A DNA stretch of 64,000 nt from Candidatus Aegiribacteria sp. MLS_C (GTDB taxonomy: Bacteria; Fermentibacterota; Fermentibacteria; Fermentibacterales; JCC-6). A model generated the notes under the pieces. That model saw only the letters and a list, made by a program, of their open reading frames with translations, made no database searches and was not told the DNA's origin. Position numbers and translations under genes: made by a program. Shown here piece by piece: positions 5,136 to 63,934 of this stretch (positions are counted from its first letter, which is position 1; every line of letters starts with the position of its first letter). Location of the stretch: assembly GCA_002030045.1 (NCBI GenBank), contig LQBI01000031.1, positions 94,854 to 158,853 on the forward strand, written 5' to 3'.

Positions 5136-6363
5136 TGAGAACGGAGCGATCGCGGGGGCTCCCGAGGCCATCGAGGCCATAGCCGCCGGCAGGATGGTGG
5201 TCGTGGTGGACGACGAGAACAGAGAGAACGAGGGTGACCTGGTGATAGCAGCCCAGATGTGCGATGCCGGAGCAGTCAACTTCATGGCCATGGAGGCCAG
5301 GGGACTGATATGCCTTTCGATGGAGAGGGAAGACCTGGAGCGGCTGGGTATCCACGAGATGGTACCCCGGAACACTTCCCTCCATGATACCGCCTTCATG
5401 GTGAGCATCGACGCAAAGGAGGGCGTATCAACAGGAATCTCGGCCCACGACAGGGCCAGGACCATCGCAGTCGCCATCGATCCCTCCTCCAGGGTCGACG
5501 ACCTCGCCCGACCCGGACACATCTTCCCGCTGGCCGCCAGGCCCGGAGGTGTCCTTTCGAGGACGGGCCACACGGAGGCGGCGGTGGACCTGGCCAGACT
5601 GGCCGGGCTCGTGCCCGCCGGAGTGATCTGCGAGATAATGAACAGGGACGGTACCATGGCCAGGCTCCCCGAGCTCAGGGAATTCTGCCGGGAGCACGGG
5701 CTGGTGCTGACCACGGTTGAGGAACTGGTCCGCTACAGGCGCAGGACCGAGAAACTGGTGCGAGAGGTTGCTGCTTCAGTTCTGCCCACGGACTACGGGA
5801 CCTTCCAGCTGAGGATATTCGAGAGCATAACCGACGGAGAGGTCCATGTGGCGCTGGTGAAGGGTGAGGTGGCTGGAATGGAGAACGTGCTTGTCAGGGT
5901 GCATTCCCAGTGCCTGACAGGCGACGTGTTCGCCTCCAGGAGGTGCGACTGCGGAAGCCAGCTGCACGCCGCGCTGAGGAGGATAGAGTACGAGGGGATG
6001 GGAGTGGTACTTTACATGGCCCAGGAGGGTCGCGGGATCGGACTGGCCAACAAGATAAAGGCATACCATCTCCAGGACCATGGTCTGGACACCGTGGAGG
6101 CCAACGAGCGTCTGGGATTCGCCCCCGATCTCAGGGACTACGGTACCGGTGCGCAGATCCTGTCCGAGCTGGGCCTGTCCACCATAAGGCTCATGACGAA
6201 CAACCCGAGGAAAATAGTCGGCCTGAGGGGCTATGGGCTCGAGATCACGGAGAGGGTGGGTATCGAGGTGAAACCCACCAACGAGAACATCAGGTACCTG
6301 AGAACAAAGAAGAATAAGCTGGGACACCTGCTGGAGGAGGTCGACGATGACCTGGATACATGA
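5125..6363 (+). CDS. ribBA: bifunctional 3,4-dihydroxy-2-butanone-4-phosphate synthase / GTP cyclohydrolase II
   Basis: DHBP synthase motifs ([14 protein letters not shown]) followed by GTP cyclohydrolase II (CDCGSQL…[12 protein letters not shown]); 412 aa. Confidence 0.9.
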
Positions 6364-6868
6364 GGGGAAGCTTGACGGCGAAGGTATCAGACCGGCCATA
6401 ATCGTATCCCGTTTCAACAGTTTCATTACCGGCAAACTGCTGGAGGGCGCCCTTGACTGCCTGGAGAGACACAACGTGGACACTGACGACATCGACGTAT
6501 TCTGGGTTCCCGGCGCCTGGGAGATCCCGGCTCTCGCATTGAGGGTAGCGGACACAGGGCTGTTCGACTGCGTTATCTGTCTTGGAGCAGTCATAAGGGG
6601 CGAGACCCCTCACTTCGAGTACGTGTCCGCGGAGAGTGCCAAGGGAGTGGCCCAGGCCGCCATGCTCACGGACGTTCCGGTGGTCTACGGGATAGTCACC
6701 GCCGATACTGTGGAACAGGCAGTGGACCGGGCAGGCACAAAGTCCGGCAACAGGGGGTTCGACGCAGCCATGACGGCGCTGGAGATGACGGCCCTCTACG
6801 ACCATCTCGCCGACCTCGAGTCCTCCAGGGAGGAAGCACCCGGGGAAGAAGGGGAAGACAAGGACTGA
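6347..6868 (+). CDS. ribH: 6,7-dimethyl-8-ribityllumazine synthase
   Basis: [18 protein letters not shown]…VPGAWEIP…[14 protein letters not shown] are lumazine-synthase signatures. Confidence 0.9.
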
Positions 6869-7309
6869 ATGGGAGTCAGGAACAGATGCCGCAAAGCCCT
6901 TCTGCAGGCCAGGTTTGCCGCTGAGATAAACGGCAGGCCGATCCTGGTGAACCTGGAGTTCATACGGAGTATGCTCGAGGATCCGGAACTTGGCGTGGGC
7001 GCGCCCCTGGACGAGGAGGACTGGACCTGGATTGCGACGCTGGCCGAGGCCATCCAGGAGAATCTGGCGGAGATAAGGGAAAGGATCGGCGGATCCCTGG
7101 AGAACTGGACTCTGGACAGGCTCAGTATCGTCACCAGGCTGATACTCGAGCAGGCCATGGGAGAGATGTTCTACTGCAGTTCCCGAACGCCTGCGCCGGT
7201 GGTAATAGACGAGTCGCTTGAACTTGCCCGAATGTTCGAGGAGGATGAAGCGGCGGGGCTGATAAACGGAGTCCTTGACGCCATATCCGGAGACGGCGGG
7301 AAGGGCTGA
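6869..7309 (+). CDS. nusB: transcription antitermination factor NusB
   Basis: Starts one nt after the ribH stop. Length ~146 aa and the position downstream of ribH match the conserved ribH-nusB pairing; NusB-like helical sequence. Confidence 0.8.
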   Translation: MGVRNRCRKALLQARFAAEINGRPILVNLEFIRSMLEDPELGVGAPLDEEDWTWIATLAEAIQENLAEIRERIGGSLENWTLDRLSIVTRLILEQAMGEMFYCSSRTPAPVVIDESLELARMFEEDEAAGLINGVLDAISGDGGKG

Positions 7310-10069: not shown

Positions 10070-10906
10070 CTAGATCTTGAGGAGTTTCAGCGTTTCCGAA
10101 CCGTTCTCATCGGATGCCACCACGAGGTAGCAGCCGCATGCAAGACCGGATCCGTCAATGGTCATCGAACCGGTCAGGGGTTGTTCCATCATGACCCTGC
10201 CGGACATGTCGTAGAGGATCATCGTACCGCTCTCGAAGCCGGAAGATGAGATTACCACGGTGGAGTTGAAGGGGTTCCGGTCCGCAGCCAGTGACCTGGC
10301 TGTCGAGGTTCCGCCTTCGCCGGAAACCCCGTTGTAAGTCTGGATGTATACCTGGACAAAACCGTTGTAGTTGCTGGCCAGAACGTCTGGAAGGCCATCC
10401 TCGTTCCAGTCGTCGATACAGAACCTGGCTCCGTAGTATCCCGTATTGATGATGGCCTCGTTCCCAGAGAAGGCCGGGTTGGCGTTGGTGCCGGTGTTCT
10501 CGTAGTAGTAGATGCTGTAATCATTCGCACCGCAGAGCAGGTCCTTCCTGCCGTCCATGTTCATGTCAAAGACCTGAGGGCAGTTCCTGTAGTGGCTGAT
10601 GTTGGTGCCGCTGCTCTGAAGAAGCGAATAGGAGTTGTAGACTGGGTCCGTGTCTATCGTGTCGTTGATGTATAATCTGACGGTGCCGTCCTGGGTCCCC
10701 AGCAGCAGGTCACGGTTCCCGTCCTCGTCCCAGTCGACGCAGACCGGTGCCGAATTGTAGCCCACGTCTATCGTTACACCGCCGCAAACGAGGTCGGCCT
10801 CCTTCGTCAGTGTGATGGGTGATTCCGATGTCCGGCGGTAGTAGTGGGTGTAGCCATTTCGGTCCCCTACTACTATGTCGAGCATACCGTCGTCGTTGTA
10901 GTCCAC
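10070..10906 (-). CDS. FG-GAP/VCBS-repeat secreted protein, C-terminal part with T9SS C-terminal sorting domain (continuous in frame with 10934-11233 across a TGA)
   Basis: Repeated DxDxDG modules (VDWDEDGNRDLLLG, FDMNMDGRKDLLCG, DDWNEDGLPDVLAS). The C-terminus LYDMSGRVM…GCYLVVASDENGSETLKLLKI resembles a Por/T9SS tail. Confidence 0.6.
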   Translation of the reverse strand: MDYNDDGMLDIVVGDRNGYTHYYRRTSESPITLTKEADLVCGGVTIDVGYNSAPVCVDWDEDGNRDLLLGTQDGTVRLYINDTIDTDPVYNSYSLLQSSGTNISHYRNCPQVFDMNMDGRKDLLCGANDYSIYYYENTGTNANPAFSGNEAIINTGYYGARFCIDDWNEDGLPDVLASNYNGFVQVYIQTYNGVSGEGGTSTARSLAADRNPFNSTVVISSSGFESGTMILYDMSGRVMMEQPLTGSMTIDGSGLACGCYLVVASDENGSETLKLLKI

Positions 10907-33243: not shown

Positions 33244-35655
33244 CTACCTGCAGACTATCACCCTGCCGGTGTGGATACCGCCGGCCGGGTCCGCGGAGCG
33301 GATCATGTACACGCCCTGAGGCACTACGGAGCTGTCCCAGGTGATGGTGTGCTGACCCGCGGCCAGCGGGCCGGAATGGATTGTGGCCACCATCCTGCCC
33401 GCGGTGTCGTAGACGGACATGCTGAAGTCACCGGTGGCGGAGAGCGAGACCGGTATGGAGAGCAGTCCCGACACCGGGTTCGGCCATGGCGTGCCAACCG
33501 AGGTGACCATGGCGCCGGGTCCCTCACCGGTTCCCATGCCGTTGATGACGCCCTCCGCGGGCAGGCAGTTGTGGGCGGTGACCATCCAGAGGATGTCGTT
33601 CAGACCACCGATGGGATCGAAGGTCAGGGTGACGCAGCCGGTGGAATCGGTGACGCCGCTGGCCCAGAGGCTGTCGTGGTAGAGGCAGACGAGGGCGTTG
33701 TTCACCGGCGCCCTGGACAGGTCCACGTAGAAAGCTGCCTCGGTGGATCCCACGGGCAAAGTGTAGGGTGGAACCACGGAGAGTTCCATCGGTACCTCCG
33801 TCCTCATGTCCATGGTCGGGTCGCCGAACCAGTGGAAGAGGTCGTAGGTCGTCTCTGCGTACCACTCCCAGCTTCCATAGGGGTTGAAGGGAGCCGCCAC
33901 GTACATCTCCATCTTGGCGGTGGTGAGGGCCTGGCCCGCCAGGTAGTTGCCGGTGGGGTCGGTGTAGAGGGCCGGAGGTGTCGTGTACTGGTCGACGAAG
34001 GATTTGTGGTGTCCGTAGGTAAGGTAGTCGTTGAAGTAGCTGTAGCTTGAGGCAGTGGCGGCAAAGACCCCTACGGCGCCGCCCTCCATCCTGAAGAAGT
34101 TCTCGGCGAAGCAGTCGCCGGAGAACTGACCCGTGAGGCAGTTGGTGCTCATGACCATGGGGGTCATGTCGCCGTTGCTCAGGCTCGACAGGTTGCTGGT
34201 GTAGAACGGGGGATCGGCCCATCCGCTGATGGACCCGTGGTCGCGGTGCTGCACCAGGAACACCCCGCCGTTGATGGCGTCGGTGATGCCCGCGGCGTTG
34301 CCGTCCCAGACTATGTCTCCGGGTACCATCTGTCCGGCGCTGGGAAGGTCGCTCCTGTAATAGTAGGGGGGCGACTGGGAGGTGTCCTTCACGTACTCGC
34401 GCTGGACCTCCTTGCCGTAGATGTTCATGTAGGTGTCGCGGACGGTTTCCAGCGTGAAGCAGAACCAGCGGGTGGCGACGGTTCCCCCGTTTGCCTGCAG
34501 CATTCCGGCGGTGAGGACGTGTCCCCAGAAGTCCGGGTCCATGAGGGGATCGAACTGCCACTTGAGTATCTTGGCCTCGACTATGGGATAATGGCTGGTC
34601 GGCGTGACGAAGCGGCTGTGGAAGATGTCCGGGAAGTAATCGGAACCGTCGACGCAGACGTACCTGTTGTCGCTGTAGCACCCGGTGGGGGCGCTGTAGC
34701 TTGTGAGGTCCCCCTGGTCGCCCACGAAGAGGACGAAGCTGGGAGGTATTACCCAGTTGTCGTAGGCGTCCTTGATGTAGTTGTAGATCTCGGTCTGGGA
34801 CCAGCTGCCGGCGGCCACGACGGCGGTGAGGTAGCCCTGCCTCATCTTGGCCTCGATGAAGGCGTCCATCATGGTGTCCACGAAGTCGTCGCCTGCTATG
34901 ATGAGCAGGTCGGCGGCGGTTATGTCCCTGGCCTGCCTTATGTTCGAAGCCCTTATCGCCTCTCCGGAAGGTATATGGATCGAGGAAGCGGCTTCTCCCA
35001 GTATGCTGGAATTGACAAGGGTCCTGTAGGTATTGCGGAAGAACCTGCTCAGAAGCCTGGGATCCACCTGCACGGAGCCTCCCAGGTCAACCGTCACTCG
35101 AAGCCTCGGGTGAACGGTCATTACCTGTGTGGCTGCATTCCAGCTGAAGGGAAGGACGGTGAAGCGTCCGATGTTGACACCCCTCATGACGCCGGCTTCC
35201 TCGAAGGCCGCGTCCTGCCGGGGATAGTTTCCCTGAGCGTACATCTCAGGAAGGTAGGTGAAGGGTACCGGGTCGTAGGAGTTGTCCGACGGAATCGGCT
35301 GCATCGGCGAAGGGGAGAACCCTTCCAGCACCACCGGTTCGCCGACGGGCTCGACGGATATCGAGACGTTCGGGGCATCCGGCAGGGCTGCCAGGAAGGA
35401 AACCTTGGGAAGCATCGGGGCGCCTTCCGTCTCGGCGTAGGGGGTCATTGAAGGTACCGAAAGCACGCTGAAGGTCTTCCCCTGCTCCGTGAAGTCGGTG
35501 TAGAAGAACCCGGGCACGGTGATGTCGACCGTGAAACCCGAAGGAGTGCATTCCACGACCTCGAGGCTGGCGTGGCCGAGGTCGGTGATTCCGAAGTCGA
35601 CCCATTCGGCCAGCGACAGGGAGGAAAGCGCTAGAAGGAGGATCAAATGTTTCAT
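33244..35655 (-). CDS. peptidase C25 (gingipain-like) with T9SS C-terminal sorting domain
   Basis: Signal peptide. Gingipain-type blocks (LLIIAGDDFVDT, VLFVGDQGDL, HRDHGS). The C-terminus SMSVYDTAGRMVATI…GVYMIRSADPAGGIHTGRVIVCR is T9SS-tail-like. Confidence 0.8.
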   Translation of the reverse strand: MKHLILLLALSSLSLAEWVDFGITDLGHASLEVVECTPSGFTVDITVPGFFYTDFTEQGKTFSVLSVPSMTPYAETEGAPMLPKVSFLAALPDAPNVSISVEPVGEPVVLEGFSPSPMQPIPSDNSYDPVPFTYLPEMYAQGNYPRQDAAFEEAGVMRGVNIGRFTVLPFSWNAATQVMTVHPRLRVTVDLGGSVQVDPRLLSRFFRNTYRTLVNSSILGEAASSIHIPSGEAIRASNIRQARDITAADLLIIAGDDFVDTMMDAFIEAKMRQGYLTAVVAAGSWSQTEIYNYIKDAYDNWVIPPSFVLFVGDQGDLTSYSAPTGCYSDNRYVCVDGSDYFPDIFHSRFVTPTSHYPIVEAKILKWQFDPLMDPDFWGHVLTAGMLQANGGTVATRWFCFTLETVRDTYMNIYGKEVQREYVKDTSQSPPYYYRSDLPSAGQMVPGDIVWDGNAAGITDAINGGVFLVQHRDHGSISGWADPPFYTSNLSSLSNGDMTPMVMSTNCLTGQFSGDCFAENFFRMEGGAVGVFAATASSYSYFNDYLTYGHHKSFVDQYTTPPALYTDPTGNYLAGQALTTAKMEMYVAAPFNPYGSWEWYAETTYDLFHWFGDPTMDMRTEVPMELSVVPPYTLPVGSTEAAFYVDLSRAPVNNALVCLYHDSLWASGVTDSTGCVTLTFDPIGGLNDILWMVTAHNCLPAEGVINGMGTGEGPGAMVTSVGTPWPNPVSGLLSIPVSLSATGDFSMSVYDTAGRMVATIHSGPLAAGQHTITWDSSVVPQGVYMIRSADPAGGIHTGRVIVCR

Positions 35656-35985: not shown

Positions 35986-36016
35986 TTGACCGCACCGGGA
36001 CACTTGTCGAATATTC
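35986..36016 (+). promoter_or_regulatory. candidate sigma70-like promoter (TTGACC-N18-AATATT) for the leader upstream of the homocysteine cluster
   Basis: TTGACC at 35986-35991 and AATATT at 36010-36015, in the AT-rich island. Confidence 0.25.
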
Positions 36017-36026
36017 CCGGCTGATC

Positions 36027-36163
36027 GGAGGAGCAGTGATGATACCAAACGCAACATGGAACTCCCGAATGATAATGCCCCGGCCCCGTCAGGGCGCTGC
36101 CGGGTAGACGCTCCTCCACACCTCCGCTGAAACCCCGCAGCCTCTCTGCGGGGCTTTTTCGTT
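36027..36163 (+). promoter_or_regulatory. candidate leader or attenuator: 22-codon leader ORF (36039-36107) whose GGAGGAGC RBS can pair with GCTCCTCC (36110-36117), followed by an intrinsic terminator (36133-36163)
   Basis: GGAGGAGC and its exact complement GCTCCTCC lie 76 nt apart. A nested CCCGGC…GCCGGG helix sits inside. The terminator ccccgcag-cctctc-ctgcgggg plus ctttttcgttt lies 40 nt before the UPF0280 start. Confidence 0.4.
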
Positions 36164-36201
36164 TCCGGGAAGAAGTTTTAACGGGATGAGCGGAGGTAGC
36201 G

Positions 36202-36939
36202 ATGTATACCCACAGGTTCTACAGGACCTGGGTCTCCCACGGAGACCTCTGCAGGTTCAGGATAGTAAGGCACGAAAGCGATCTGCACATTGCAGCGGAC
36301 TGCGATCTCTCCATGGCGGCCTGCGATGCCCTCCACAGGGTCCGCAGGGAACTGGAGGGCTACGCAGACGGCAATGAAGCCTTCCTCCATTCCCTGGTAC
36401 CGGTTACGGTCCCGCCGTCGGCTCCTGAGGTGGCGGTGAGAATGGCTGAAGCGTCCTCCCTCTGGGGAGTGGGACCCATGGCCTCGGTGGCGGGTGCGGT
36501 CGCCGAGAGCGTGGGCCGGGCGCTGGAGGAATGGACGGATACGGTGATAGTGGAGAACGGCGGGGACATCTTCGCGAGGAGCGCCGGGACATTGAATTTC
36601 GTCCTCTACGCCGGGGAGGACTCCCCGTTCAGCGGCAGGATAGGTTTCCGTATCCACGCCCCGGACGGGAAGGGCGTCTGCACCTCTTCTGGCACGGTGG
36701 GCCATTCCCTCTCCTTCGGAAGGGCCGGAGCAGTCACAGTGGTTGCAGGGGACTGCGCCGAGGCCGACGCAGCCGCCACGGCCATAGCCAACATGATATC
36801 AGCCCCCGGGGATCTCGAGGAAACCCTGGAAAGGGTCAGTCTGAGGGGAAGCGTCGAAGGCGTGGTGGCCTGCTGCGGCAGGTCCATCGTCTCCAGGGGG
36901 GTAAGGCTTCTGCCGGTGGAGGGAAGGGAGGGGGCATGA
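36202..36939 (+). CDS. UPF0280-family protein, first gene of the DUF39/NIL-ferredoxin homocysteine-biosynthesis cluster
   Basis: 245 aa; resembles archaeal UPF0280 proteins by recollection, and sits immediately upstream of the NIL-ferredoxin and COG1900 genes. The stop overlaps the next ATG (ATGA). Confidence 0.55.
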   Translation: MYTHRFYRTWVSHGDLCRFRIVRHESDLHIAADCDLSMAACDALHRVRRELEGYADGNEAFLHSLVPVTVPPSAPEVAVRMAEASSLWGVGPMASVAGAVAESVGRALEEWTDTVIVENGGDIFARSAGTLNFVLYAGEDSPFSGRIGFRIHAPDGKGVCTSSGTVGHSLSFGRAGAVTVVAGDCAEADAAATAIANMISAPGDLEETLERVSLRGSVEGVVACCGRSIVSRGVRLLPVEGREGA

Positions 36940-37373
36940 CGGTTTCCATCAGCGTGCTGCTGAGCTTCCCCGGGGAATGCGTCGGCGAACCGGTGATATC
37001 CGGTCTTGTGCGGGAGTGCGGTCTCGAGGTGAACATCCTCCACGCACGCATAAGTCCCAGCGAGGAGGGAAGGATGCTGGCCAGGCTGGAGGGGACGGAG
37101 GATCTGATGGAAAGGGGCTTGGACTACCTTTCCCGACGGGGGGTCGGAGTAACCGTTCCGGGAACCGGCTTCATCTGGGACGAGGATCTCTGCGTGCACT
37201 GCGGAGCCTGTGCCGGCATCTGCCCCGGGGGGGCGTTCACCGTCGATCACGACACTCTCCTGGTTTCCTTCGATATGTCCGGCTGCATCCTGTGCGGGCT
37301 CTGCATGGAGGTCTGCTACTACGGGGCCGTCCAGTCGGTGGAGGATCACATGAAAGGAGGAAGCGGGAAATGA
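36936..37373 (+). CDS. NIL-domain protein fused to a 2x[4Fe-4S] ferredoxin (MA1822-like)
   Basis: NIL-like N-terminus (…GEPVISGLVRECGLEVNILHARI…GRMLARLEG) and CVHCGACAGICP…CILCGLCMEVC. Confidence 0.75.
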   Translation: MTVSISVLLSFPGECVGEPVISGLVRECGLEVNILHARISPSEEGRMLARLEGTEDLMERGLDYLSRRGVGVTVPGTGFIWDEDLCVHCGACAGICPGGAFTVDHDTLLVSFDMSGCILCGLCMEVCYYGAVQSVEDHMKGGSGK

Positions 37374-38509
37374 TGAGGAGCTGGGAGGGAATAAACGAGA
37401 GGATCGACTCGGGAAGGGTAACAGTGGTCACAGCGGAGGAGATGACGGAGATGTCCGCCTCCATTGGGGTTGCAGAGGCCTTCAGGAGAGTGGACGTCGT
37501 TACCACCGGCACATTCTCCCCCATGTGCTCCAGCGGTGTCCTTCTCAACACTGGACACCATTCACCGCGGCTCAATTACCGGAGGGCCTGGCTGAACGGT
37601 GTGCCCGCCTACTCGGGTCTGGCCGCCGTGGACCTGTACGTCGGCGCTACGGCCCGAAGGGAGTCCGGGGACCGTGGAGAGGGCGGAGAATACGGGGGAG
37701 GCCATCTGATCGAGGACCTGGTCGCGGGAAGGCAGGTGAGGCTGACCGCGGAAGGCCACGGCACCGACTGCTATCCGGGAAGGGCCGTTGAGAAGATCAT
37801 CGGCCTTCAGGAGCTGAGGGACGCGTTCCTGGTCAACCCGAGGAACTGCTACCAGAACTACAACGTGGCGGTGAACCGCTCGAAGGAGAGGACCGTCCAC
37901 ACATACATGGGACCCCTGCTGCCGGACATGAGGAACGCCTCGTACAGCAGCGCCGGCCAGCTGTCGCCGCTGATGAACGATCCGGAGTACAGGACCATCG
38001 GAATAGGCTCCAGGGTGTTCCTGGGAGGAGGCATCGGGTACGTATCCTTCAGGGGAACGCAGCACGATCCATCGGTACGGAGGACCGAGGGCGGAATACC
38101 GGAGGGAGGCGCCGGAACACTGTTCCTCACCGGGGATCTCAAAGGGATGTCCCGCGAGTTCCTAAGAGGAGTTAGAATACCAGGTTACGGTGTATCCCTT
38201 GCCGTGGGAGTAGGGACCGCCATACCTCTCCTGGACGAGGAGATGGCCCGCTGCGCAAGCGTGTCGGACAGGGAGATACCGGCCCCCGTGGTGGACTACT
38301 CCGGCGACTACCCGGAAATGAACGGGCGTATAGTGGGAACCACGGACTACGCGGCACTCAGGTCCGGCGAGATATCGCTCCTGAACAGGAGGGTAAGGAC
38401 GGTGCCCCTCTCCAGCTACCCGATGGCGAGAAGGATCGCGCTTAAGCTCCGCAGCATGGTGGAGCAAGGGCTCTTCAGGCTCTGCAGACCCTCGGCGCCG
38501 CTGGAATAG
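37370..38509 (+). CDS. COG1900/DUF39 homocysteine-biosynthesis enzyme (MA1821-like, sulfide-dependent)
   Basis: AGGAGG RBS; ATGATG start overlaps the NIL-ferredoxin stop. 379 aa; DUF39 is seen next to NIL-ferredoxin as in methanogens. Confidence 0.75.
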   Translation: MMRSWEGINERIDSGRVTVVTAEEMTEMSASIGVAEAFRRVDVVTTGTFSPMCSSGVLLNTGHHSPRLNYRRAWLNGVPAYSGLAAVDLYVGATARRESGDRGEGGEYGGGHLIEDLVAGRQVRLTAEGHGTDCYPGRAVEKIIGLQELRDAFLVNPRNCYQNYNVAVNRSKERTVHTYMGPLLPDMRNASYSSAGQLSPLMNDPEYRTIGIGSRVFLGGGIGYVSFRGTQHDPSVRRTEGGIPEGGAGTLFLTGDLKGMSREFLRGVRIPGYGVSLAVGVGTAIPLLDEEMARCASVSDREIPAPVVDYSGDYPEMNGRIVGTTDYAALRSGEISLLNRRVRTVPLSSYPMARRIALKLRSMVEQGLFRLCRPSAPLE

Positions 38510-38589: not shown

Positions 38590-40152
38590 ATGAAGAATTA
38601 CGTTTGCGCCCTTGCGGCTGCCGTTATGCTGGTCGTCTCGTGCGGGACCGGAGTCGTGGCTCCCGGAAACGAGATGAGGTGTTCGCTCCCGGAGAAGACA
38701 CATACGCTTTCCGACGCCTGGCATGATGGGGAGAGCATCCTCCTCTCCCTCGGGATGCCCATGGCCATGGACGTCTATACGGAGGCCCACGGAATATCCG
38801 GCAGCGGCATAATGGTCATCGACGTCAGGAGCCACGATTTCGACCCGATTGCAGCGGTCATCGACGGACAGGGGAGCCTTGTGGCCCTGTGCGATGACTG
38901 GAAGGACAGCAGCAACGCCAGAATAGTCCTGAACGGTGCCCCTTCGGGAGGCCGGCTGCTTGTCTTCTCACCGGATGATTCCCGGGGGCTGTATGACGTG
39001 GTTGTGAGGGAAGGAACACAGCAGGACCTGGAAGCCTTCTCAGGCGCCATGGACCTCTCCTCCGGCCAGGTGAGAGGATGGATGGAGGCCGGTTCCTACA
39101 ACCCGGTCCTGGAGACCGTCCTCAGGGAGAGCCTGGAGCAGAACGTCTACAACTACAACTATTCCCAGGCCCAGCTCTTCCCGTTCTCGCTGGACGGGGA
39201 GGAACTGGTGTCCCTGAGCCTGGAGTCAGTCGAGTTCGACACCTACCTGGTGCTGGTGTCAGTAGAGGATGGTTCCTACGGTTTCGTGGCATACAACGAC
39301 GATTACAGCGGGTCCGACTCCCGGATCATCAGCAGCCTGGAGGCCGGGGACTACCTGGCCGTGGTGATGCCCTACGCGACTGGCGAAACGGGGGAGTTCG
39401 CACTTCGACTGGAGAAGATGGACAGCGGTGCCCTTGAGGCATCCGGTGTGGATGCCGGCGAGCAGGGCGTCGAATACTCGGGCATGATTCGGGAAGACGC
39501 CAGCCTGGCGCTGGCCTGGTGGCCGGACATGGCGGACAGCTGGGAGGTGCCGTCCTTCCTCGATCCCTTCAGCCCGGTCGCCGGTTTCACTTTTACGGTC
39601 CATGAACCTTCGGTCTACAGCCTGGAGGCCCGGGGGGAAATCGACGTCTGCCTGACCCTGCTGAGGGAACAGGACGGGTACATGGAACTTGCGGGCTCAA
39701 ACGACGACAACATCGACATGGGAACCGACTCGAGGATAACGGGTCCCCTGGTACCCGGCGAGTACACGGCACTGGTTTCGGCCTACAGCGGCGGCGAAGG
39801 AGGCCCGGTGACCTTCTCATGGCGGATGGAGGACTCGATTATCGAATCCCTCACACCGGGAAGGCCGGTGGATGCTTACGCCCCCTACGAGACCCCCAGT
39901 CTCATCTACAGTCTGGAGGCCGTTCCCGGAAGGACCTATTCGATCTCCGTCGAGAGCGTCGATCTCGACCCGGTGACGACCCTTTACCTGCCCGACGGCC
40001 AGAGCATGTACGACGACGACGGAGGGGAGGGGACCAACTCCCTCCTCACGTTCACTCCCGCACCCGCTCAGGCGGGTACATGCTTCCTTGTGGTGGAGAA
40101 GTACTCGGAAGGCACCGGGACCTTCAGCATACTGCTGGAGCAGCAGAGGTAG
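38590..40152 (+). CDS. lipoprotein with tandem PPC (pre-peptidase C-terminal)-like beta-sandwich domains
   Basis: Lipobox VVSCGTG. Repeated units of the type DTYLVLVSVEDGSYGFVAYNDDYSGSDSRI…GDYLAVVMPYATGETGEFALRL. Confidence 0.6.
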   Translation: MKNYVCALAAAVMLVVSCGTGVVAPGNEMRCSLPEKTHTLSDAWHDGESILLSLGMPMAMDVYTEAHGISGSGIMVIDVRSHDFDPIAAVIDGQGSLVALCDDWKDSSNARIVLNGAPSGGRLLVFSPDDSRGLYDVVVREGTQQDLEAFSGAMDLSSGQVRGWMEAGSYNPVLETVLRESLEQNVYNYNYSQAQLFPFSLDGEELVSLSLESVEFDTYLVLVSVEDGSYGFVAYNDDYSGSDSRIISSLEAGDYLAVVMPYATGETGEFALRLEKMDSGALEASGVDAGEQGVEYSGMIREDASLALAWWPDMADSWEVPSFLDPFSPVAGFTFTVHEPSVYSLEARGEIDVCLTLLREQDGYMELAGSNDDNIDMGTDSRITGPLVPGEYTALVSAYSGGEGGPVTFSWRMEDSIIESLTPGRPVDAYAPYETPSLIYSLEAVPGRTYSISVESVDLDPVTTLYLPDGQSMYDDDGGEGTNSLLTFTPAPAQAGTCFLVVEKYSEGTGTFSILLEQQR

Positions 40153-41666: not shown

Positions 41667-42665
41667 ATGAGATTCACTCTTGTATTACTTTCCATTCTGG
41701 CGGCTGTGGCCCTCTCGGCCGAGAGGACCGTACTCTGGGAGTACTTCACCCAGACCGGTTGACCCACCTGCTACAGCAGCTGGTCAGCTGTTAAGAGTGC
41801 CATCAACCCCTTCCTCACCTCCGGCGATGTAGCTCCACTCTACATCTTCTACAACGGTCCCGCCGCATGTGCCTTCAACTCGACCAGGTTCAGCTTCTAC
41901 GGCGTCGGGGCGACACCCACGGTCAAGATCGACGGGCTCGCGTCCGGCTATGCGCCCTCGGGATACGCGACAGCCATCAACAACAGGCTGGCGGTCCCCT
42001 CCTACGTGGACATCGACGTTACAATGGTGGGCGATGCCTCCGGCGGCACCGCGTACATCAGTGTCACAGCCGAGGAGGAGCCCTCCCAGACCTATCCTAT
42101 CAAGGTCTGGTGCGTGATCACCGAGGACCACGACATTGCCGCCGGAACAGGCTGGGGCGGGTACACGAACATGGAGATGATGTGGCTTCCCCGTGCATGG
42201 CCACTGGGGACCCAGGGCCAGGCGCTGAACTTCACGGGCCCGTACCCGCAGACCCTGAGCGTGGCCGGGGACTACACCCTCGACCCCTCACAGCACCAGT
42301 TCGACAACCTGAACGTGACCACCTTCGTCCAGTACACATCCGGCACAAGGGAGTGTCTCAACGCCGACCATATGGACATGCCCGACACGGCTACCGGAGT
42401 CTACGGCGACGAGGAGGGTTACTCACCAGTCACGCTCCTCACCGCAGGGCCCAACCCTTCCAACGGGGCCGTCACCATCAGCTGCGGGCTTCCCGCAGGA
42501 GTGGCCGGGACGGTAAGGGTATTCGATATAACCGGCAGGATCGTGAATTCCTTCCCCGCCGGGGATGCCGTCGAAACCCAGCTGGCGGAAAGCGGCGTCT
42601 ACTTCGTGCACCTGAGCACTACCGGAGGGGAATCGGTCAGGAGACAGATCACCGTAATAAGGTAG
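41667..42665 (+). CDS. predicted selenoprotein: signal-peptide, thioredoxin-like (UxxC) N-terminal domain, T9SS C-terminal sorting domain; in-frame UGA at 41760-41762
   Basis: AAAGGAGAAG RBS and ATG 41667. Signal peptide MRFTLVLLSILAAVALSA. VLWEYFTQTG-[TGA]-PTCYSSW resembles a Trx-fold F/W-x-x-W-C-x-x-C motif with Sec in place of the first Cys. The frame stays open across the TGA for 301 more codons. The C-terminus (…VRVFDITGRIVNSF…GVYFVHLSTTGGESVRRQITVIR) is T9SS-tail-like. Confidence 0.55.
41775..41792 (+). other. candidate bacterial SECIS-like hairpin 12 nt downstream of the UGA
   Basis: AGCAGC-UGGUCA-GCUGUU, a 6-bp stem (one G-U pair) with a G/U-containing apical loop. Confidence 0.3.
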
Positions 42666-43171: not shown

Positions 43172-43777
43172 TCAGGTGTTGCAGAAATGCTTATCCAGGT
43201 AGTAGGCCAGAAGCCTCCTGGCCTCCTCCTCGCACTCTCCGCAGGAGGTGCCCACCTTGGTCTTCTCCTGCAGCTGGTAGTAGTTCCTGGCTCCCTCAAG
43301 GACCGCGTGCTCTATCTCGTCCTCGGTGATGTTGAGGCACTGGCAGACCACCCGTGAGCCGGTGTCGTGGACCCTGTCCTCCATACCGATGGAGCGGTAG
43401 TAGTTGTCTATAGCCCTGCGCAGGGCCTTGTCGCCGAGGACGGAGCAGTGTACCTTGTTCTCGGGGAGCCCGCCGAGCTGCTCTATGATGTCCCTGTTGG
43501 AGATTCTGTATGCGTCCTCGAGTTTCATGCCCTTCACCATCTCGGAGAGGACGGATGTGCTGGCTATGGCGCTGGCGCACCCGAAGGTCTTCCACCGGCA
43601 GTCCGTGATGGTCATCGATTCGGGGTCTATCTTCAGGTAGAAGGTCATCTCGTCGCCGCACTTGATGTTGCCGGTGGTTCCCTTCGCGTCGTACTCGAAG
43701 CCCTCCTCGTCGTACATGATGTTCTTCGGGTCCATGAAGTGCTCCTTGACCCGGTCCGAGTACAGCCAGTCGCTCAT
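43172..43777 (-). CDS. nifU: NifU-like Fe-S cluster scaffold (IscU-type N-domain plus BFD-like [2Fe-2S] domain)
   Basis: N-terminus MSDWLYSDRVKEHFMDPKN; scaffold cysteines (GNIKCGDEM…FGCASAIAS); BFD-like CQCLNITEDEI…CGEC. Confidence 0.85.
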   Translation of the reverse strand: MSDWLYSDRVKEHFMDPKNIMYDEEGFEYDAKGTTGNIKCGDEMTFYLKIDPESMTITDCRWKTFGCASAIASTSVLSEMVKGMKLEDAYRISNRDIIEQLGGLPENKVHCSVLGDKALRRAIDNYYRSIGMEDRVHDTGSRVVCQCLNITEDEIEHAVLEGARNYYQLQEKTKVGTSCGECEEEARRLLAYYLDKHFCNT

Positions 43778-44958
43778 CTGCAGCTCCCGCCCCAGGCAGT
43801 GGACATCTTCCTCAGTCTCCGCACCACGCCCGGAAGGACCTCGAGCACCCTCTCGACGTCGTCCTCCGTTGTGGACCTCCCCATGCTGATGCGAAGGGAT
43901 CCGTGACTGTACTCAACGGGAAGACCCATCTCGAGGAGCACATGGGAAGGGTCAAGGGACCCCGACGCGCATGCGGAACCGGTGGAGACCTCTATGCCCT
44001 CCATGTCGAGATACAGCAGCATGGCCTCCCCCTCGACGCCGGCGAAGGAGACGTTCAGCGTCGAATGTACGCAGTGTTCCGGGAAGCTGTTGAAGTGAAT
44101 GTCGTCTATCCTTTCAATTATTCCTTCCCTGAGCCTGCGGTTGAGGGCCTCAAGCTTCCTTCCCTCGGCTTCCATCTCCAGTCCCCTCATTTCCGCAGCG
44201 ATTCCGAATCCCGTTATTCCCAGGGTGTTCTCGGTGCCCGCCCGTCGTCCCATTTCCTGGTGGCCGCCTCGGATCAGGGGACAGAAGGGCGTGCCCCTCC
44301 TTACATAAAGAGCGCCCACCCCCTTGGGTCCGTATATCTTGTGGGCCGAGACCGTCAGGAAGTCCACTTCCAGTTCTCTAACGTCAACCGGTATCTTGCC
44401 CACGGCCTGTACGGCATCGGTGTGGAAGAGGGCTCCCGCCCTGTGGGCGAGGTCCAACGCCGTACGAACATCCTGTATCGCACCTGTCTCGTTGTTCACC
44501 ATCATGATGGAAACCAGCGACGTATCCCTGGCGAGGGCCTCCTCGAGGTCCTCCATCCTGAGCAGGCCACGTTCATCGACGCCTATCCTGGCCACGCTTG
44601 CGCCGCGGTTCTCAAGACATTTGGAGGTCTCGAGGATACACGGGTGCTCGATGGTGGAAGTGACCAGCTGGCTCTCGACCGAAGGATGGATGCCGCACTG
44701 CGCCCCGGTGCAGCCGAGGATTGACAGGACGGTGTTGTTGGCCTCGGAGCCGCTGCCCACGAACATCATATCCCCGGGTTCCGCGTTTATCAGCGCCGCC
44801 ACCCTGCCCCTTGCCTCCTCAAGCAGAGCCCTGGCCTCCCTGCCGTCGGCGTGGAGGCTGGATGGATTCCCGTAGAGGTCCATGGAGTCTATGATCGACT
44901 TCCTGACCTCGGGATGCAGTGGAGTCGTCGCGTTATGGTCCAGGTAGATCCTCTTCAT
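43774..44958 (-). CDS. nifS: cysteine desulfurase
   Basis: MKRIYLDHNATTP start; PLP lysine context SAHKIYGPKG; active-site loop STGSACAS; 4-nt overlap with nifU. Confidence 0.85.
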   Translation of the reverse strand: MKRIYLDHNATTPLHPEVRKSIIDSMDLYGNPSSLHADGREARALLEEARGRVAALINAEPGDMMFVGSGSEANNTVLSILGCTGAQCGIHPSVESQLVTSTIEHPCILETSKCLENRGASVARIGVDERGLLRMEDLEEALARDTSLVSIMMVNNETGAIQDVRTALDLAHRAGALFHTDAVQAVGKIPVDVRELEVDFLTVSAHKIYGPKGVGALYVRRGTPFCPLIRGGHQEMGRRAGTENTLGITGFGIAAEMRGLEMEAEGRKLEALNRRLREGIIERIDDIHFNSFPEHCVHSTLNVSFAGVEGEAMLLYLDMEGIEVSTGSACASGSLDPSHVLLEMGLPVEYSHGSLRISMGRSTTEDDVERVLEVLPGVVRRLRKMSTAWGGSCR

Positions 44959-45127
44959 CTTCTCTCCAGGTTCATGAAACCTCATATCCGTCGACGCCCC
45001 GTGATTATGTGCCTGCCCAACGTGAAATGCAACCGCTCATAGCCGGTTCCCCTCCATTGTCCCCGGAGCGGACCTTGGACATGTTTTCCTTCTTGGCGGT
45101 AAAAAAAAGGAAGGAACGGGGTCTCCC

Positions 45128-60574: not shown

Positions 60575-61681
60575 TCAGTCGGTGATCTCTTCCAGTTCAT
60601 CTGCACGGTAGGTCGACAGGGGCGTCGGATCCTCCATGTTCCTGCCCGGATGGTATTCCAGTGCGGGCTGCACCAGCGATCCCGCCCTTATGAATAGATC
60701 GGCCACGGGTATTCCCACGGGACACGCATCGCTGCACTGCCCGCATCCGGTGCAGTACGGGGCTATGTGGTTCAGCCTTCCCAGGTGGAACTGCAGTGTG
60801 CCGGGTGGCACTCTCAATGCACCCCTTCTTTCGGCCTCGTGCCCTATCAGCGAAGGTGGATAGATTGTCCTCGCGGTCTCGTAATCGCACAGCAGGCAGG
60901 TGCACAGGGGACACGCCTGCCGGCATGCCCTGCAGCCTATGCATTTGGCGAACAGGCTTACCAGTTCCTCCAGACCGCTGCCGGCGGACGGGCCCTTCTC
61001 AATGAAGTCCTGCCGCTGAAGGGACCTGCGCCGGGCGACAGCCCTGGTGAGCTGCTCCAGGGACGGCCCCTGGACGATCTCGAAACCGGTAAGGTCTTCG
61101 GCCATGGACGCCGCCGCCTCGGACCTCAGGAGTATTCGAGTGTCTTCCGGGCTTTCATCCGCTTCCAGAAGCAGGACCATGTCGGCAGGGTCCCCGGGGA
61201 CGAAATCGGTGCAGACCGAGCATGCGGTCCTGTAACCGGATCCGCCGCCGCTCTTTCCTGAGTCATTTCCCGAGGCCTTGCCGGAGTCTCCGACCCCGGG
61301 GCAGGTGCAGCTGATGAAGAACATGTTCTCCACGCTGCCCTGTGACTGTTTCACGTTCTCGATAAAGGCCCTCAGCTCGCAGGGTCTTATGATGACGGCG
61401 ACCTTCTCCTCGAGCGGCCGCGATACCGTCAGCTGGGAGAGTGCCCTTGCGGCCTGGACCGGCATCAGGGGATGGAACGGGACCGCTTCCTCGACAAGTC
61501 TCGGATCCGATATGAGGGAATAGCTGAAGCTCTCGTTGCCGGGGATGCTGCGAAGCGAGAAGACGGCCTTCACGGAACCGCTGACCAGGAGCTGCCTCAG
61601 GATGCTGCGAACCCCCTCGACGTGGTCTCCGGGACACCGGATGTACCGCCCGCCCGCCGTTGCCTCAGTCCTCGAACTCAT
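60575..61681 (-). CDS. FrhB/FdhB-family protein (coenzyme F420 hydrogenase/dehydrogenase beta-subunit-like) with 2x[4Fe-4S] ferredoxin insert
   Basis: CIGCRACRQACPLC and CTGCGQCSDACPVG. GAGGAGGA RBS; 17-nt overlap with the upstream paralog. Confidence 0.7.
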   Translation of the reverse strand: MSSRTEATAGGRYIRCPGDHVEGVRSILRQLLVSGSVKAVFSLRSIPGNESFSYSLISDPRLVEEAVPFHPLMPVQAARALSQLTVSRPLEEKVAVIIRPCELRAFIENVKQSQGSVENMFFISCTCPGVGDSGKASGNDSGKSGGGSGYRTACSVCTDFVPGDPADMVLLLEADESPEDTRILLRSEAAASMAEDLTGFEIVQGPSLEQLTRAVARRRSLQRQDFIEKGPSAGSGLEELVSLFAKCIGCRACRQACPLCTCLLCDYETARTIYPPSLIGHEAERRGALRVPPGTLQFHLGRLNHIAPYCTGCGQCSDACPVGIPVADLFIRAGSLVQPALEYHPGRNMEDPTPLSTYRADELEEITD

Positions 61682-62723
61682 GCAGTTCCTCCTCGACGAA
61701 GGTGTTCAGCGGAAGAGGCTCCTCCGGGTCCTTTCCCGCCCTGTAGTCGAAGAGCGCGGAAGTGCCGGCGCCTACCATGCTGACAAGTCTTCCAACGGGG
61801 ATCCCTGCGGGGCAGGCGTCCTCGCACATACCGCAGCCGACGCAGGAAATGCTCATATGGGCCATTCGGCCGATGTGGAACAGAAGGGTATCGGAGACCA
61901 GCCTGGCCGCCCCTGACCTTCGGGACCGGTCGAGGTGCGAGGATGCCGGACTGCGTCTGTCCTTCATGTCGATGAAGCACTGCCTGCAGTAGCATATAGG
62001 ACATACCGTCCTGCAGGCCCTGCATCCGATGCAGTCGGCGAAGAAGTCCGACAGCCGGCCTATGCCCGCCACCTGTTGCCTCAGTTCTGTCCTCGCCCCC
62101 TCCGCGGTACCGAGCCTGAGTGCCCTGAGTTCTTCCGTTCTTTTCGACCATTCGTCCAGGCTGCCCTGTTCCTCGAGACCCAGCGAGGACGCGAGTTCCC
62201 CGCCCTTAGCCGTCAGCGGGAGCAGGAGGTTCGAATCAGCGGACCTGACGATGCAGGCGTCGCCGCAGGCGGTGAATTCGGAGCACTGCCTGCAGGCAGG
62301 TCGCAGGTTTGCCGGATCGCATTCTTCGGGTTCCGCCGCGCCGTCGTAGAGGTCCAGCTGAATGACACCGGGACAGTCCATGGTGACCAGCGTAAGGTTC
62401 GCGTGGTCGATCTGACGGAGTTTCATCACCTCCACCGCCGCCCTTGCCTCGCAGGGCCGCATTATGGCCAGTATTCTGCGGGATGAGGGCTCTCCGGCCG
62501 CCGAGGACAGGGCCCTGGCCCCCTGTACGGTCATTACCGGCGGCAGGGGTTCCGCCGAGGTCAGAGCGTCAGGCGTTCCCGCCAGTATCCAGCTGTAGCT
62601 GTCCCCGGGACCCCTTGACGGAACCATCACGAAGTCGGCGTACCCCTCCCTGAGAGCGGAGTATGCCAGCTCAAGGAGCGCTTCGCGAAGCGGCAGGCCG
62701 GGGCTGGTGACGAGGCCCCTCAT
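61665..62723 (-). CDS. FrhB/FdhB-family protein, paralog 2, with 2x[4Fe-4S] ferredoxin insert
   Basis: CIGCRACRTVCPIC and CVGCGMCEDACPAG. Start MRGLVTSP overlaps the hdrA-like stop (ATGA). Confidence 0.7.
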   Translation of the reverse strand: MRGLVTSPGLPLREALLELAYSALREGYADFVMVPSRGPGDSYSWILAGTPDALTSAEPLPPVMTVQGARALSSAAGEPSSRRILAIMRPCEARAAVEVMKLRQIDHANLTLVTMDCPGVIQLDLYDGAAEPEECDPANLRPACRQCSEFTACGDACIVRSADSNLLLPLTAKGGELASSLGLEEQGSLDEWSKRTEELRALRLGTAEGARTELRQQVAGIGRLSDFFADCIGCRACRTVCPICYCRQCFIDMKDRRSPASSHLDRSRRSGAARLVSDTLLFHIGRMAHMSISCVGCGMCEDACPAGIPVGRLVSMVGAGTSALFDYRAGKDPEEPLPLNTFVEEELHEFED

Positions 62724-63934
62724 CTCAGGGCTCCCTCCACCTGCGACCGGATCTGTTCGGGAGTGAAGTGCAGCGACCGTATGGCTCCGGAAGGACACGC
62801 CGCGGCGCAATTACCGCAACCCTTGCATAGAACGCCGTTGACGGTGCACACGAACCTCTCCTCATCGAAGGAAATGGCTCCGAAACCGCAGACGTCCATG
62901 CACTGCCGGCATCCGCGGCAGAGTGTCTCGTTTATGACGGACCTCCTTGGTTCCGTCATGACCTCCCTGCCGGGGACCAGGGCTGAGAGGATGCCGCCTG
63001 CCACAGCCTCGGCGCTTCTGACCGAGTCGCCGGGACCGCAGGGGCCTCCTGCGCAGCCCGCTATGTACACGCCGTCGATGGCGGTGGAGAACGGATCGAG
63101 GAAAGTGTGCCTTCGTGAAGGGAAACCTGACTGTCCAGCCGATAGACGCAGCATTCCAGCTATTCCAGAGAATCCTTTCGACGGCCGGTACTTCCCGTCT
63201 TCCATCTCGCAGCCGGTTGCCAGTACCAGTGCACCGACCCTGAGAGGTTCGTCGAGGCTGGTGACGGAAACAATGAAATTCCCGAAGAAACCGACTATTT
63301 CCTGGGGCTCGCTTCCGGTCAGGACCTCGATGGAACTGGTTCGACCGACCTCCTCGGCCAGTTCCGCGGTAACGGCCAGGTCCCTGCCCTCCGGGCTGCC
63401 GCCCAGCTCCGGCTCCCTCTCCAGGAGGACTACCCTTCTGCCGGCTTCCGCGAGTATCAGGGAGGCTATCATGCCGGTGAGCCCTCCTCCTATCACGAGC
63501 ACGCCGGGATCGCAGACTATGCTGCTGGTCTCCAGGGCTTCATGGCGGGCCGCCCTCTCCACGGCGGCCCTGATCATCCTGAGGGCTTTCCAGGTGGCCA
63601 GGTCGCGGTCTGATGTAACCCATGCCACATGTTCACGGATGTTTGCCATTTCCATCATGAAGGGGTTCAGACCCGCCGCAGCGCATACGGCCATGAAGGT
63701 CCTCTCGTGCTCCCTGGGAGAACAGGCGGCCACCACCAGCCTTTCGAGACGGTTCGCCCTTATCCTCTCCGCGAGGTACTCCCTTCCTTTGGGGGAGCAG
63801 AGCAGACCGTAGGTCTCCGCGACCACCACTCCCGGCATGACGGATGCCTCCTCCGCGAGCCTGCCGATATCGACCCTGTCGCTGATGTTGTTCCCGCAGC
63901 TGCATATGAAGACTCCGGTCCGAGGAAGAATCAT
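62720..63934 (-). CDS. HdrA-like FAD-dependent flavoprotein (heterodisulfide reductase subunit A family, short QmoA-like form) with C-terminal ferredoxin cysteines
   Basis: N-terminus GVFICSCGNNISDRVD; FAD fold GVLVIGGGLTGMIASLIL; C-terminal CRGCRQCMDVC…CKGCGNCAAACP; AGGAGA RBS. Confidence 0.75.
   Translation of the reverse strand: MILPRTGVFICSCGNNISDRVDIGRLAEEASVMPGVVVAETYGLLCSPKGREYLAERIRANRLERLVVAACSPREHERTFMAVCAAAGLNPFMMEMANIREHVAWVTSDRDLATWKALRMIRAAVERAARHEALETSSIVCDPGVLVIGGGLTGMIASLILAEAGRRVVLLEREPELGGSPEGRDLAVTAELAEEVGRTSSIEVLTGSEPQEIVGFFGNFIVSVTSLDEPLRVGALVLATGCEMEDGKYRPSKGFSGIAGMLRLSAGQSGFPSRRHTFLDPFSTAIDGVYIAGCAGGPCGPGDSVRSAEAVAGGILSALVPGREVMTEPRRSVINETLCRGCRQCMDVCGFGAISFDEERFVCTVNGVLCKGCGNCAAACPSGAIRSLHFTPEQIRSQVEGALR

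Follow-up and report, generated by a model that had tools for sequence, protein, structure and literature searches.

A conserved leader with methionine codons, a candidate attenuator, upstream of a probable sulfide-dependent homocysteine operon in Candidatus Aegiribacteria sp. MLS_C

In Methanosarcina acetivorans, MA1821, a member of COG1900a, and MA1822, a ferredoxin with a NIL domain, make up L-ASST, the L-aspartate-semialdehyde sulfurtransferase; Cys54 of MA1821 is essential, Cys131 is conserved yet dispensable, and methionine and S-adenosylmethionine (SAM) are the presumed ligands of the NIL and CBS domains (PMC12068725). The DUF39 gene Dde_3007 of Desulfovibrio alaskensis is required for homocysteine synthesis, homocysteine rescues its mutant, and genes for a ferredoxin and a COG2122 protein are "often adjacent" to its orthologues (PMC4045070). 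Mutants of D. vulgaris in the DUF39, NIL/ferredoxin and COG2122 genes are methionine auxotrophs, homoserine is no intermediate, and in Dehalococcoides the genes are clustered as DET0919-DET0921 (PMC5764234). Here we analyze a stretch of 64,000 nucleotides from Candidatus Aegiribacteria sp. MLS_C (hereafter the window, to which all coordinates without a locus label refer), where genes of the same three families (g1-g3) occupy positions 36202-38509 of the forward strand, and we describe the element that precedes them at 35986-36160, which runs from a promoter-like site through a short leader open reading frame (ORF) with two methionine codons to an intrinsic-terminator-like hairpin. The explanation that we find best overall, and that we regard as likely, is a homocysteine operon under the control of a methionine-sensing attenuator. 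The original prediction had recognized the three genes, but the conserved leader ORF and the terminator that precede 36202 had escaped it.

The known regulators of methionine genes are MetJ/MetR, SAM riboswitches, methionine T-boxes and SahR. The classical attenuators (trpL, hisL, pheL, thrL, leuL and ilvL, as well as the mycobacterial leaders with cysteine codons) share with the window element a short ORF that is preceded by a Shine-Dalgarno (SD) sequence and contains codons of the end product, a hairpin within this ORF, and the placement of an intrinsic terminator before the first gene; the alternative pairing of the 3' end of the ORF with the 5' arm of the terminator, as in these attenuators, is predicted for the window. 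The leader in the window differs from them in that the amino acid would be methionine, in that there are two regulatory codons set one codon apart, in its conserved C-terminus and in its host, a candidate lineage of the FCB (Fibrobacteres-Chlorobi-Bacteroidetes) group. Comparative attenuator studies reported none for methionine operons (PMC2965389, PMC1262725), and in full-text literature searches we found no description of a methionine leader peptide or attenuator. We therefore put the leader forward as a candidate new variant of ribosome-mediated attenuation, which, if confirmed, would extend control by leader peptides both to methionine, the amino acid that is itself needed to initiate the leader peptide, and to a candidate FCB-group lineage.

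The three genes and the homocysteine route

All features of the operon and of its leader lie on the forward strand. The first gene, g1 (36202-36939), encodes a COG2122/UPF0280 ApbE-like protein of 245 aa, the second, g2 (36936-37373), a NIL-domain ferredoxin of 145 aa with two [4Fe-4S] motifs, and the third, g3 (37370-38509), a DUF39/COG1900a protein of 379 aa that is the presumed sulfurtransferase subunit. Consecutive genes overlap by ATGA at 36936-36939 and by ATGATGA at 37370-37376, so that the gene coordinates and the translational coupling given in the original prediction stand unchanged. Its family assignments also hold. The 379-aa protein matches Pfam PF01837 HcyBio (formerly DUF39) with an E-value of 2.9e-137 over profile positions 2-349 of 349; the sequence ends with this domain and a profile search found no CBS match in it, in agreement with the bacterial type of the protein, since Dde_3007 is likewise devoid of CBS domains (PMC4045070). 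The ferredoxin contains the NIL domain (PF09383, E-value 6e-18) followed by two CxxCxxCxxxC motifs. The UPF0280 protein obtains at best 235 bits against the NCBIfam UPF0280 models (PRK04334.1-3), the equivalog cut-off of which is 271 bits; it matches the solved structure 2O34 in the PDB with an E-value of 5e-33 over residues 18-229 and carries the precomputed family PF27030 AbpE_bact, and the Pfam profile search used here returned no match for it. Thus, g1 is a member of the COG2122/UPF0280 family and not an equivalog of the PRK04334 models. We take 2O34, the solved structure nearest to g1, to be the D. vulgaris protein DVU1097. A search of the PDB sequences with DUF39 found no solved relative.

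The same three families, apparently equivalent cysteine positions and the same type of partner, a NIL domain with two [4Fe-4S] clusters, are found in M. acetivorans MA1821, MA1822 and MA1715. However, MA1821 possesses C-terminal CBS (SAM-sensing) domains that are absent from g3, the COG2122 gene MA1715 lies apart from the other two, whereas the window genes form one operon, and the loop at residues 98-107 of g3 is shortened in a clade-specific manner unlike in the MA1821 system. The Desulfovibrio system (Dde_3007/DVU2938/DvMF_1464, DvMF_0262 and DvMF_0044/Dde_2535) resembles the window in having a bacterial DUF39 protein without CBS domains and in requiring all three components, and a DUF39 protein from Desulfovibrionaceae (locus L079) is 52% identical to g3. 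In contrast to the overlapping operon of the window, the three Desulfovibrio genes have locus tags that are far apart (PMC5764234), and related loci from Thermodesulfobacteriota mostly contain DUF39 alone within +/-6 kb. The three-gene cluster itself recurs in Dehalococcoides (DET0919-DET0921) and in operons of Bacillota, WOR-3 and others. It follows that the label "methanogen-type" in the original prediction is misleading, for the system has been established genetically in Desulfovibrio, is clustered in Dehalococcoides and is very common in anaerobic bacteria. Likewise, the earlier description of the UPF0280 gene as preceding the pair is right about its position but understates its role, as COG2122 is the third component of the pathway (PMC5764234).

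A genome scan matched at least 600 stretches, with at least 562 GTDB loci encoding DUF39 relatives. The best 80 of these loci show 49-59% identity to g3 and come from many anaerobic phyla; within their flanks, all three genes are present in 31, DUF39 and the NIL-ferredoxin in 11, and DUF39 alone in 38. The usual order is DUF39 - NIL-ferredoxin - COG2122, and the reverse order of the window is also seen in L004, L006 and L007. The closer relatives (62-75% identity) are metagenome bins of Fermentibacterota/Aegiribacteria, most of which, among those examined, keep the gene order of the window with overlapping genes. Among the Fermentibacterota relatives examined, linkage of all three families is broken only in L108, where no ferredoxin gene lies between the ApbE-like and DUF39 genes.

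Of 17 loci from other phyla (Bacillota, WOR-3 and others), 8 carry a SAM-I riboswitch scoring 79-92 bits directly 5' of DUF39, before operons of the order DUF39 - NIL-ferredoxin - COG2122 (L005 192-292, L008 5813-5911, L012 130-231, L013 5708-5815, L016 120-215, L026 896-1009, L052 1731-1826 and L065 5363-5472). In L109, a Fermentibacterales metagenome-assembled genome, metK for S-adenosylmethionine synthetase is located directly 3' of the three-gene cluster (4389-5546). Both findings link the operon with methionine metabolism without recourse to homology. The Bacillota and WOR-3 operons have a methionine-related cis-regulatory leader directly upstream, as the window appears to have, with the difference that their sensor is a SAM aptamer and their gene order is the opposite, whereas the window has a leader ORF with methionine codons. 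This offers a natural comparison of two solutions for the same operon, a SAM-binding RNA in Bacillota and WOR-3 and a methionine-codon leader ORF in Fermentibacterota, the two regulators presumably sensing different points of the methionine cycle, namely SAM and charged tRNA. Two further elements lie beyond the far end of the cluster, namely a T-box (L008, 8451-8713) and, in another locus, a cobalamin riboswitch (L050, 6244-6413).

We aligned g3 with the DUF39 proteins of the best 80 GTDB loci. In the resulting 81 sequences, Cys53 is conserved in 100%, Cys134 in 94% and Cys160 in 88%; judged by their positions and by the statement in PMC12068725, rather than by a direct alignment, Cys53 and Cys134 appear to be the equivalents of Cys54 and Cys131 of MA1821. 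Both cysteine clusters of g2 (Cys86/89/92/96 and Cys117/120/123/127) are 100% conserved in 43 homologues, while g1 keeps the near-invariant motifs VGPMAxVAG, ENGGD and SSGxxGxSxSxG, with Cys160 conserved in 88% of 32 homologues. Against this background the Aegiribacteria-type DUF39 proteins (P0002-P0028 in our collection) stand apart. The loop (E/D)DPxN..xPGxF, with a conservation of 94-99% among the 80 nearest GTDB homologues, is missing from them, and their C-termini come some 15 residues earlier than in these homologues; in g3 the loop region reads ESGDRGEGGE at residues 98-107 (37661-37690). At position 130, near the conserved Cys134, they have His (37757-37759 in the window) instead of Tyr. 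A deeper member of the Fermentibacterales, P0097, retains the canonical loop. The NIL domain of the ferredoxin has been mostly or wholly lost in two lineages of the clade, L084 (5756-6004) and L094 (~2455-2740), as compared with L086 (5567-6004). Since both 4Fe-4S motifs are retained there, the loss fits a regulatory rather than a catalytic role of the NIL domain. The repeated NIL loss and the clade-specific DUF39 loop deletion provide structure-function handles in an enzyme family that is without a solved structure.

The altered loop at residues 98-107 and the Y130H replacement could also be taken to mean that g3 is a COG1900 paralogue which makes another thiol, either in the manner of coenzyme M synthase or as some other aldehyde sulfurtransferase, especially as COG1900 falls into several subfamilies and MMP16 may in part be replaceable by L-ASST (PMC12068725). 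We give this reading very little credence. MMP16/ComF, the COG1900d coenzyme M synthase, shares COG1900/PF01837 with g3, but its COG1900 domain is interrupted by a ferredoxin domain and its conserved cysteines are different, whereas g3 scores 112 bits against the MMP16 model TIGR03287 (cut-off 363.95), contains no Fer4 match and follows the COG1900a cysteine pattern. Moreover, the NIL-ferredoxin and COG2122 partner genes adjoin g3, its orthologues at 50-57% identity are found under SAM-I riboswitches, metK stands beside the cluster in L109, and the leader in the window contains methionine codons.

We are therefore confident that g1-g3 constitute a sulfide-dependent homocysteine operon encoding the L-ASST components, and the homocysteine-pathway reading in the original prediction is supported by the family assignments together with the published work on Desulfovibrio and Methanosarcina. 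By analogy with that work, the chemistry would be aspartate semialdehyde + sulfide + 2 e- -> homocysteine. The sulfur transfer would be carried out by g3, probably via a persulfide on the invariant Cys53; electrons would be fed by g2 through its two [4Fe-4S] clusters, with the NIL domain likely serving as a methionine-binding regulatory module, and g1 would support sulfide assimilation or persulfide loading. MLS_C can probably make homocysteine directly from sulfide. Taken alone, the gene cluster adds a new member to a known system and is not surprising; by itself it represents an annotation gain only, the g3 product being 100% identical to AVO35_06685 of Candidatus Aegiribacteria sp. MLS_C, which was deposited as "hypothetical protein".

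The conserved leader upstream of the operon

The element at 35986-36160 begins with a promoter-like site at 35986-36015, detected by a consensus scan, in which a sigma-70-like -35 box TTGACC and a -10 box AATATT are separated by an 18-nt spacer. An SD sequence GGAGGAG (36027-36033) follows, 5 nt before the ATG of the leader ORF (36039-36107), which comprises 22 codons and a TAG stop, encodes MIPNATWNSRMIMPRPRQGAAG and is uncalled in public records. The proposed regulatory codons, ATG-ATA-ATG for Met-Ile-Met, are found at 36069-36077, with both ATGs invariant among relatives and unpaired in the predicted fold. They are directly followed by a hairpin within the ORF (36078-36104, -16.4 kcal/mol), CCCCGGCCCCG...GCUGCCGGG, the arms of which we call segment 1 (36078-36088) and segment 2 (36096-36104). 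Between the leader stop and the terminator there are two boxes that resemble an anti-SD sequence, GCUCCUCC (36110-36117) and CCUCCG (36121-36126). The intrinsic-terminator-like hairpin (36133-36159, -14.7 kcal/mol) consists of CCCCGCAG, the loop CCUCU and CUGCGGGG; its stem-loop spans 36133-36153 and is followed by CUUUUU. No gene on the forward strand lies upstream that this hairpin could terminate. The SD of g1, GGAGG (36192-36196), is invariant in our alignment A1. The boxes CUCCUCC/CCUCCG (36110-36126) are complementary to both SDs (36027-36033 and 36192-36196): both the minimum-free-energy fold and the centroid fold pair GCUCCUCC with the leader SD, and a CCUYCG box, complementary to the SD of g1, is kept in most leaders. 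They may add a translational layer to the regulation or block re-initiation on terminated transcripts.

We gathered 17 distinct leaders by exact-protein look-ups, a metagenome pattern scan, a covariance-model search and inspection of L004. An alignment of the window with four relatives shows strong conservation from the promoter through the terminator, and the TTGAC and ATATT(C) boxes are kept at equal spacing in related leaders. An in-frame ORF exists in 17/17 leaders; counted from the start nearest the SD it has 19-25 codons, or 38 if the long form of L109 is taken. Its N-terminal half is variable, and its C-terminus follows the pattern M-x-M-P-x-P-R-x-G-x-x-G-stop. Both ATG codons are invariant in all 17, the codon between them is free (ATA, TTA, ACC, GCG, ATC, TCC or CGC), and the methionine codons stand 36 nt before the stop in 16 of the 17 leaders and 30 nt before it in L108. 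The stop codon varies only among TAG, TAA and TGA. An SD (at least 4 nt) before an in-frame start was found in 12 of the 14 leaders scored, and besides these AAGGAG is present in L107 and GGAG in L108. Non-initiator methionine amounts to 11.3% of the leader residues as against 2.7% in the three operon proteins; since the leaders share a relationship, the binomial p-value of this comparison serves as a rough guide only. In 17/17 leaders the ORF is followed by a hairpin that is rich in GC (-10 to -25 kcal/mol), with a U-tract in 15.

The terminator-like hairpins of this region are not enriched over shuffled sequences (3 found, 2.2 expected), which leaves some room for regarding the upstream conservation as a promoter with a small non-coding RNA gene, or as a stray terminator, unlinked to the operon. 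It is very improbable that this is so. The element is always on the operon strand and immediately 5' of g1, and it stays in place when the flanking genes change (L088, L105 and L106-L109, as compared with the loci flanked by a C25 peptidase gene). A metagenome scan with the core motif returned 14 matches, the 8 genuine ones being all 5' of the ApbE-like gene of the operon; the remaining 6 were chance occurrences in coding sequence. A covariance model of the leader, searched against 88 sources, recovered the window, L098 and a weak match in L004 only, which, within the present sampling, restricts the element to Fermentibacterota and L004. A scan of other phyla for methionine-rich small ORFs 5' of DUF39 gave apparent cases of the MMMNREIRLV type in loci resembling those of Desulfobaccales, but these turned out to be the antisense of a divergently transcribed gene.

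An additional question is whether the leader is a metabolite-binding riboswitch, for SAM, S-adenosylhomocysteine (SAH) or methionine for instance, in which the small ORF is incidental. The SAM-I riboswitches at the same position in orthologous operons of other phyla speak for this, as do the fold of the leader, which is somewhat better than that of shuffles (z = -2.2), and the conservation of nucleotides outside the codon logic, such as the G that occupies, without exception, the third position of the variable codon within CCC-NNG-CCC, together with the lack of codon periodicity. We nevertheless consider it unlikely. In the whole window, none of the 4227 Rfam families matched at the gathering threshold, and between 35500 and 36400 a search at E <= 5 yielded no riboswitch or leader family, only weak matches driven by the terminator; no covariance model of the known classes (SAM-I to SAM-VI, SAM/SAH, SAH and T-box) matched the leader. 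The conserved core measures only about 35 nt, and its fold is a plain hairpin. The ATG-NNN-ATG, although its two ATGs are invariant, stays unpaired and has a middle codon that is free to vary, and the SD, the start and the stop occur at a fixed frame and distance in 16 of the 17 leaders. In addition, the low-GC leader of L107 retains the peptide by synonymous changes (CCA for CCC, GGT for GGC).

The conservation of the peptide raises yet another scenario. Counted back from the stop codon, P-9 is conserved in 14 of 16 leaders, P-7 in 15, R-6 in 14, G-4 in 15 and G-1 in 14, so that the last 12 residues are conserved at the amino-acid level, including the synonymous changes in L107, and classical attenuators do not need such C-terminal conservation. 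Gly or Pro beside a stop codon slows peptide release. It is tempting to consider a peptide that senses methionine, SAM or homocysteine as a ligand and arrests the ribosome at or near the stop codon, with no sensing of Met-tRNA, as TnaC does for tryptophan, SpeFL for ornithine and the plant CGS1 for SAM; if true, this would be a bacterial counterpart of TnaC, SpeFL and CGS1 coupled to an intrinsic terminator. We regard such a role as unlikely, because the conservation largely coincides with the nucleotides of segments 1 and 2 and can be explained by RNA structure, and because no similarity to known arrest peptides was seen. Termination would be favored if the ribosome stalled at the stop codon and so covered segment 2, in keeping with repression by excess ligand, although the data do not demand this. 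Given the conserved Pro, Arg and Gly residues and the terminal Gly, an effect at the level of the peptide, such as slow release at the stop or arrest, may contribute.

A model of attenuation by Met-tRNA supply

With somewhat more confidence than doubt, we propose that the leader is a ribosome-mediated transcription attenuator that senses Met-tRNA. Every step of the scheme is deduced from the sequence architecture. Transcription would start near 36022, and the 22-codon leader ORF would then be translated. With ample methionine, the ribosome would reach the stop codon at 36105 and cover segment 2 (36096-36104), whereupon the terminator hairpin (36133-36153) would form and transcription would end before g1. 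If Met-tRNA were scarce, the ribosome would stall at the two methionine codons (36069-36077) and cover segment 1, and the free segment 2 would pair with the 5' arm of the terminator, allowing the RNA polymerase to read through into g1-g3.

Predicted folds are consistent with this scheme. The hairpin between segments 1 and 2 within the ORF has energies of -11 to -17 kcal/mol in 13 leaders. In the window, segment 2 can alternatively pair with the terminator 5' arm (36133-40) at 7 of the arm's 8 nt, as calculated with the RNA 5' of the position 14 nt past the second methionine codon masked and with the 3' arm of the terminator not yet made. In folds of the nascent RNA, 4-9 nt of the terminator 5' arm pair with the last codons of the ORF in 12 of 13 leaders, and an antiterminator is also predicted in the four leaders added later, which brings the count to 16 of 17. 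When the sequestered fraction of this arm is summed over the leaders, it is larger than in any of 300 shuffles of the segment-2 region.

It must be noted that several observations weigh against a homocysteine operon controlled in this manner. Tests of the antiterminator by shuffling each sequence separately were not significant, and the energies of cognate and non-cognate duplexes between segment 2 and the terminator 5' arm do not differ (permutation p = 0.21). RNAalifold gave no consensus pairs, and hence no covariation, on the MAFFT alignment of the terminators, because the variable loops misalign the terminator 5' arms. By codon-position entropy, the conserved 36-nt block shows no excess of variation at third codon positions; the RNA-level and codon constraints are therefore intertwined, and the block provides no independent proof of coding. 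A clear SD is missing in L004 and L095, and L004 and L109 have a poor U-tract or none. The regulatory codons number only two, and methionine starvation would also limit the initiation of the leader ORF itself. As to the proteins, the score of g1 is below the NCBIfam equivalog cut-offs, g3 lacks the DPxN...PGxF loop and has the Y130H replacement, and the function of the operon in MLS_C is a prediction from sequence.

The source organism and the surroundings of the operon

Candidatus Aegiribacteria sp. MLS_C, a lineage of the FCB group, comes from the sulfidic, euxinic sediment of Mahoney Lake, and the contig of the window corresponds to MLSed_10000017 of JGI 3300001533, with a length of 164.6 kb. 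The expectation in the original prediction of an anaerobic, candidate-phylum origin thus proved right, given the 100% match of g3 to the MLS_C protein. MLS_C is a proposed fermenter, and its published description, which reports genes of some amino-acid pathways as missing, is silent on methionine and homocysteine (PMC4846661). The 64-kb window contains no canonical methionine gene of the metX/metA or metY/metB/metZ type. The GC content of the cluster, 0.63, is the same as that of the window, and there is therefore no sign of recent transfer.

The operon is flanked upstream by a divergent gene for a C25 peptidase (33244-35655, reverse strand), from which g1 is separated by an intergenic gap of 546 bp, and downstream by a gene for a PPC-domain protein with a lipoprotein-like signal (38590-40152, forward strand). 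Profile matches to Peptidase_C25 and Por_Secre_tail mark the former as cargo of the type IX secretion system, as do matches to FG-GAP and Por_Secre_tail in the product of 10070-10906 (reverse strand), so that such cargo is indeed present in the window as had been predicted. Close relatives often share the C25 peptidase upstream and the PPC-domain protein downstream: both flanks are kept in L084, L086 and L103, and the C25 peptidase alone in L104. Both are absent from L088 and L105-L109, and there is no evident functional link between these neighbors and the operon. Concerning the HdrA and FrhB genes that had been placed at the window end, an HdrA-like N-terminal fragment is encoded at 62720-63934 (reverse strand), but the supposed FrhB gene at 60575-61681 (reverse strand) shows only 4Fe-4S matches and none to the FrhB/FdhB family.

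About 5 kb from the operon, at 43172-44985 on the reverse strand, lie the genes of a cysteine desulfurase of the NifS type and of a NifU scaffold that includes a BFD-like 2Fe-2S domain. This pair is a plausible supplier of Fe-S clusters to g2; its linkage to the operon is not kept in other relatives. A riboflavin operon (3428-7309, forward strand), which consists of ribD and the genes of riboflavin synthase, ribBA and lumazine synthase, followed by nusB, adjoins a transglutaminase-like gene, and no FMN riboswitch was detected in the whole window at the Rfam gathering threshold. Finally, a 31-codon ORF that resembles a signal peptide, MRFTLVLLSILAAVALSAERTVLWEYFTQTG, is found at 41667-41762 on the forward strand (L001 14298-14393), and also in L084 (12903-12998) and L103 (8246-8341). 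It could represent a split gene, a frameshift or a real small gene. Several assemblies call it as a separate gene, and in the window, in L002/L003 and in L103 it is located ~80-240 nt 5' of a protein with Por_Secre_tail.

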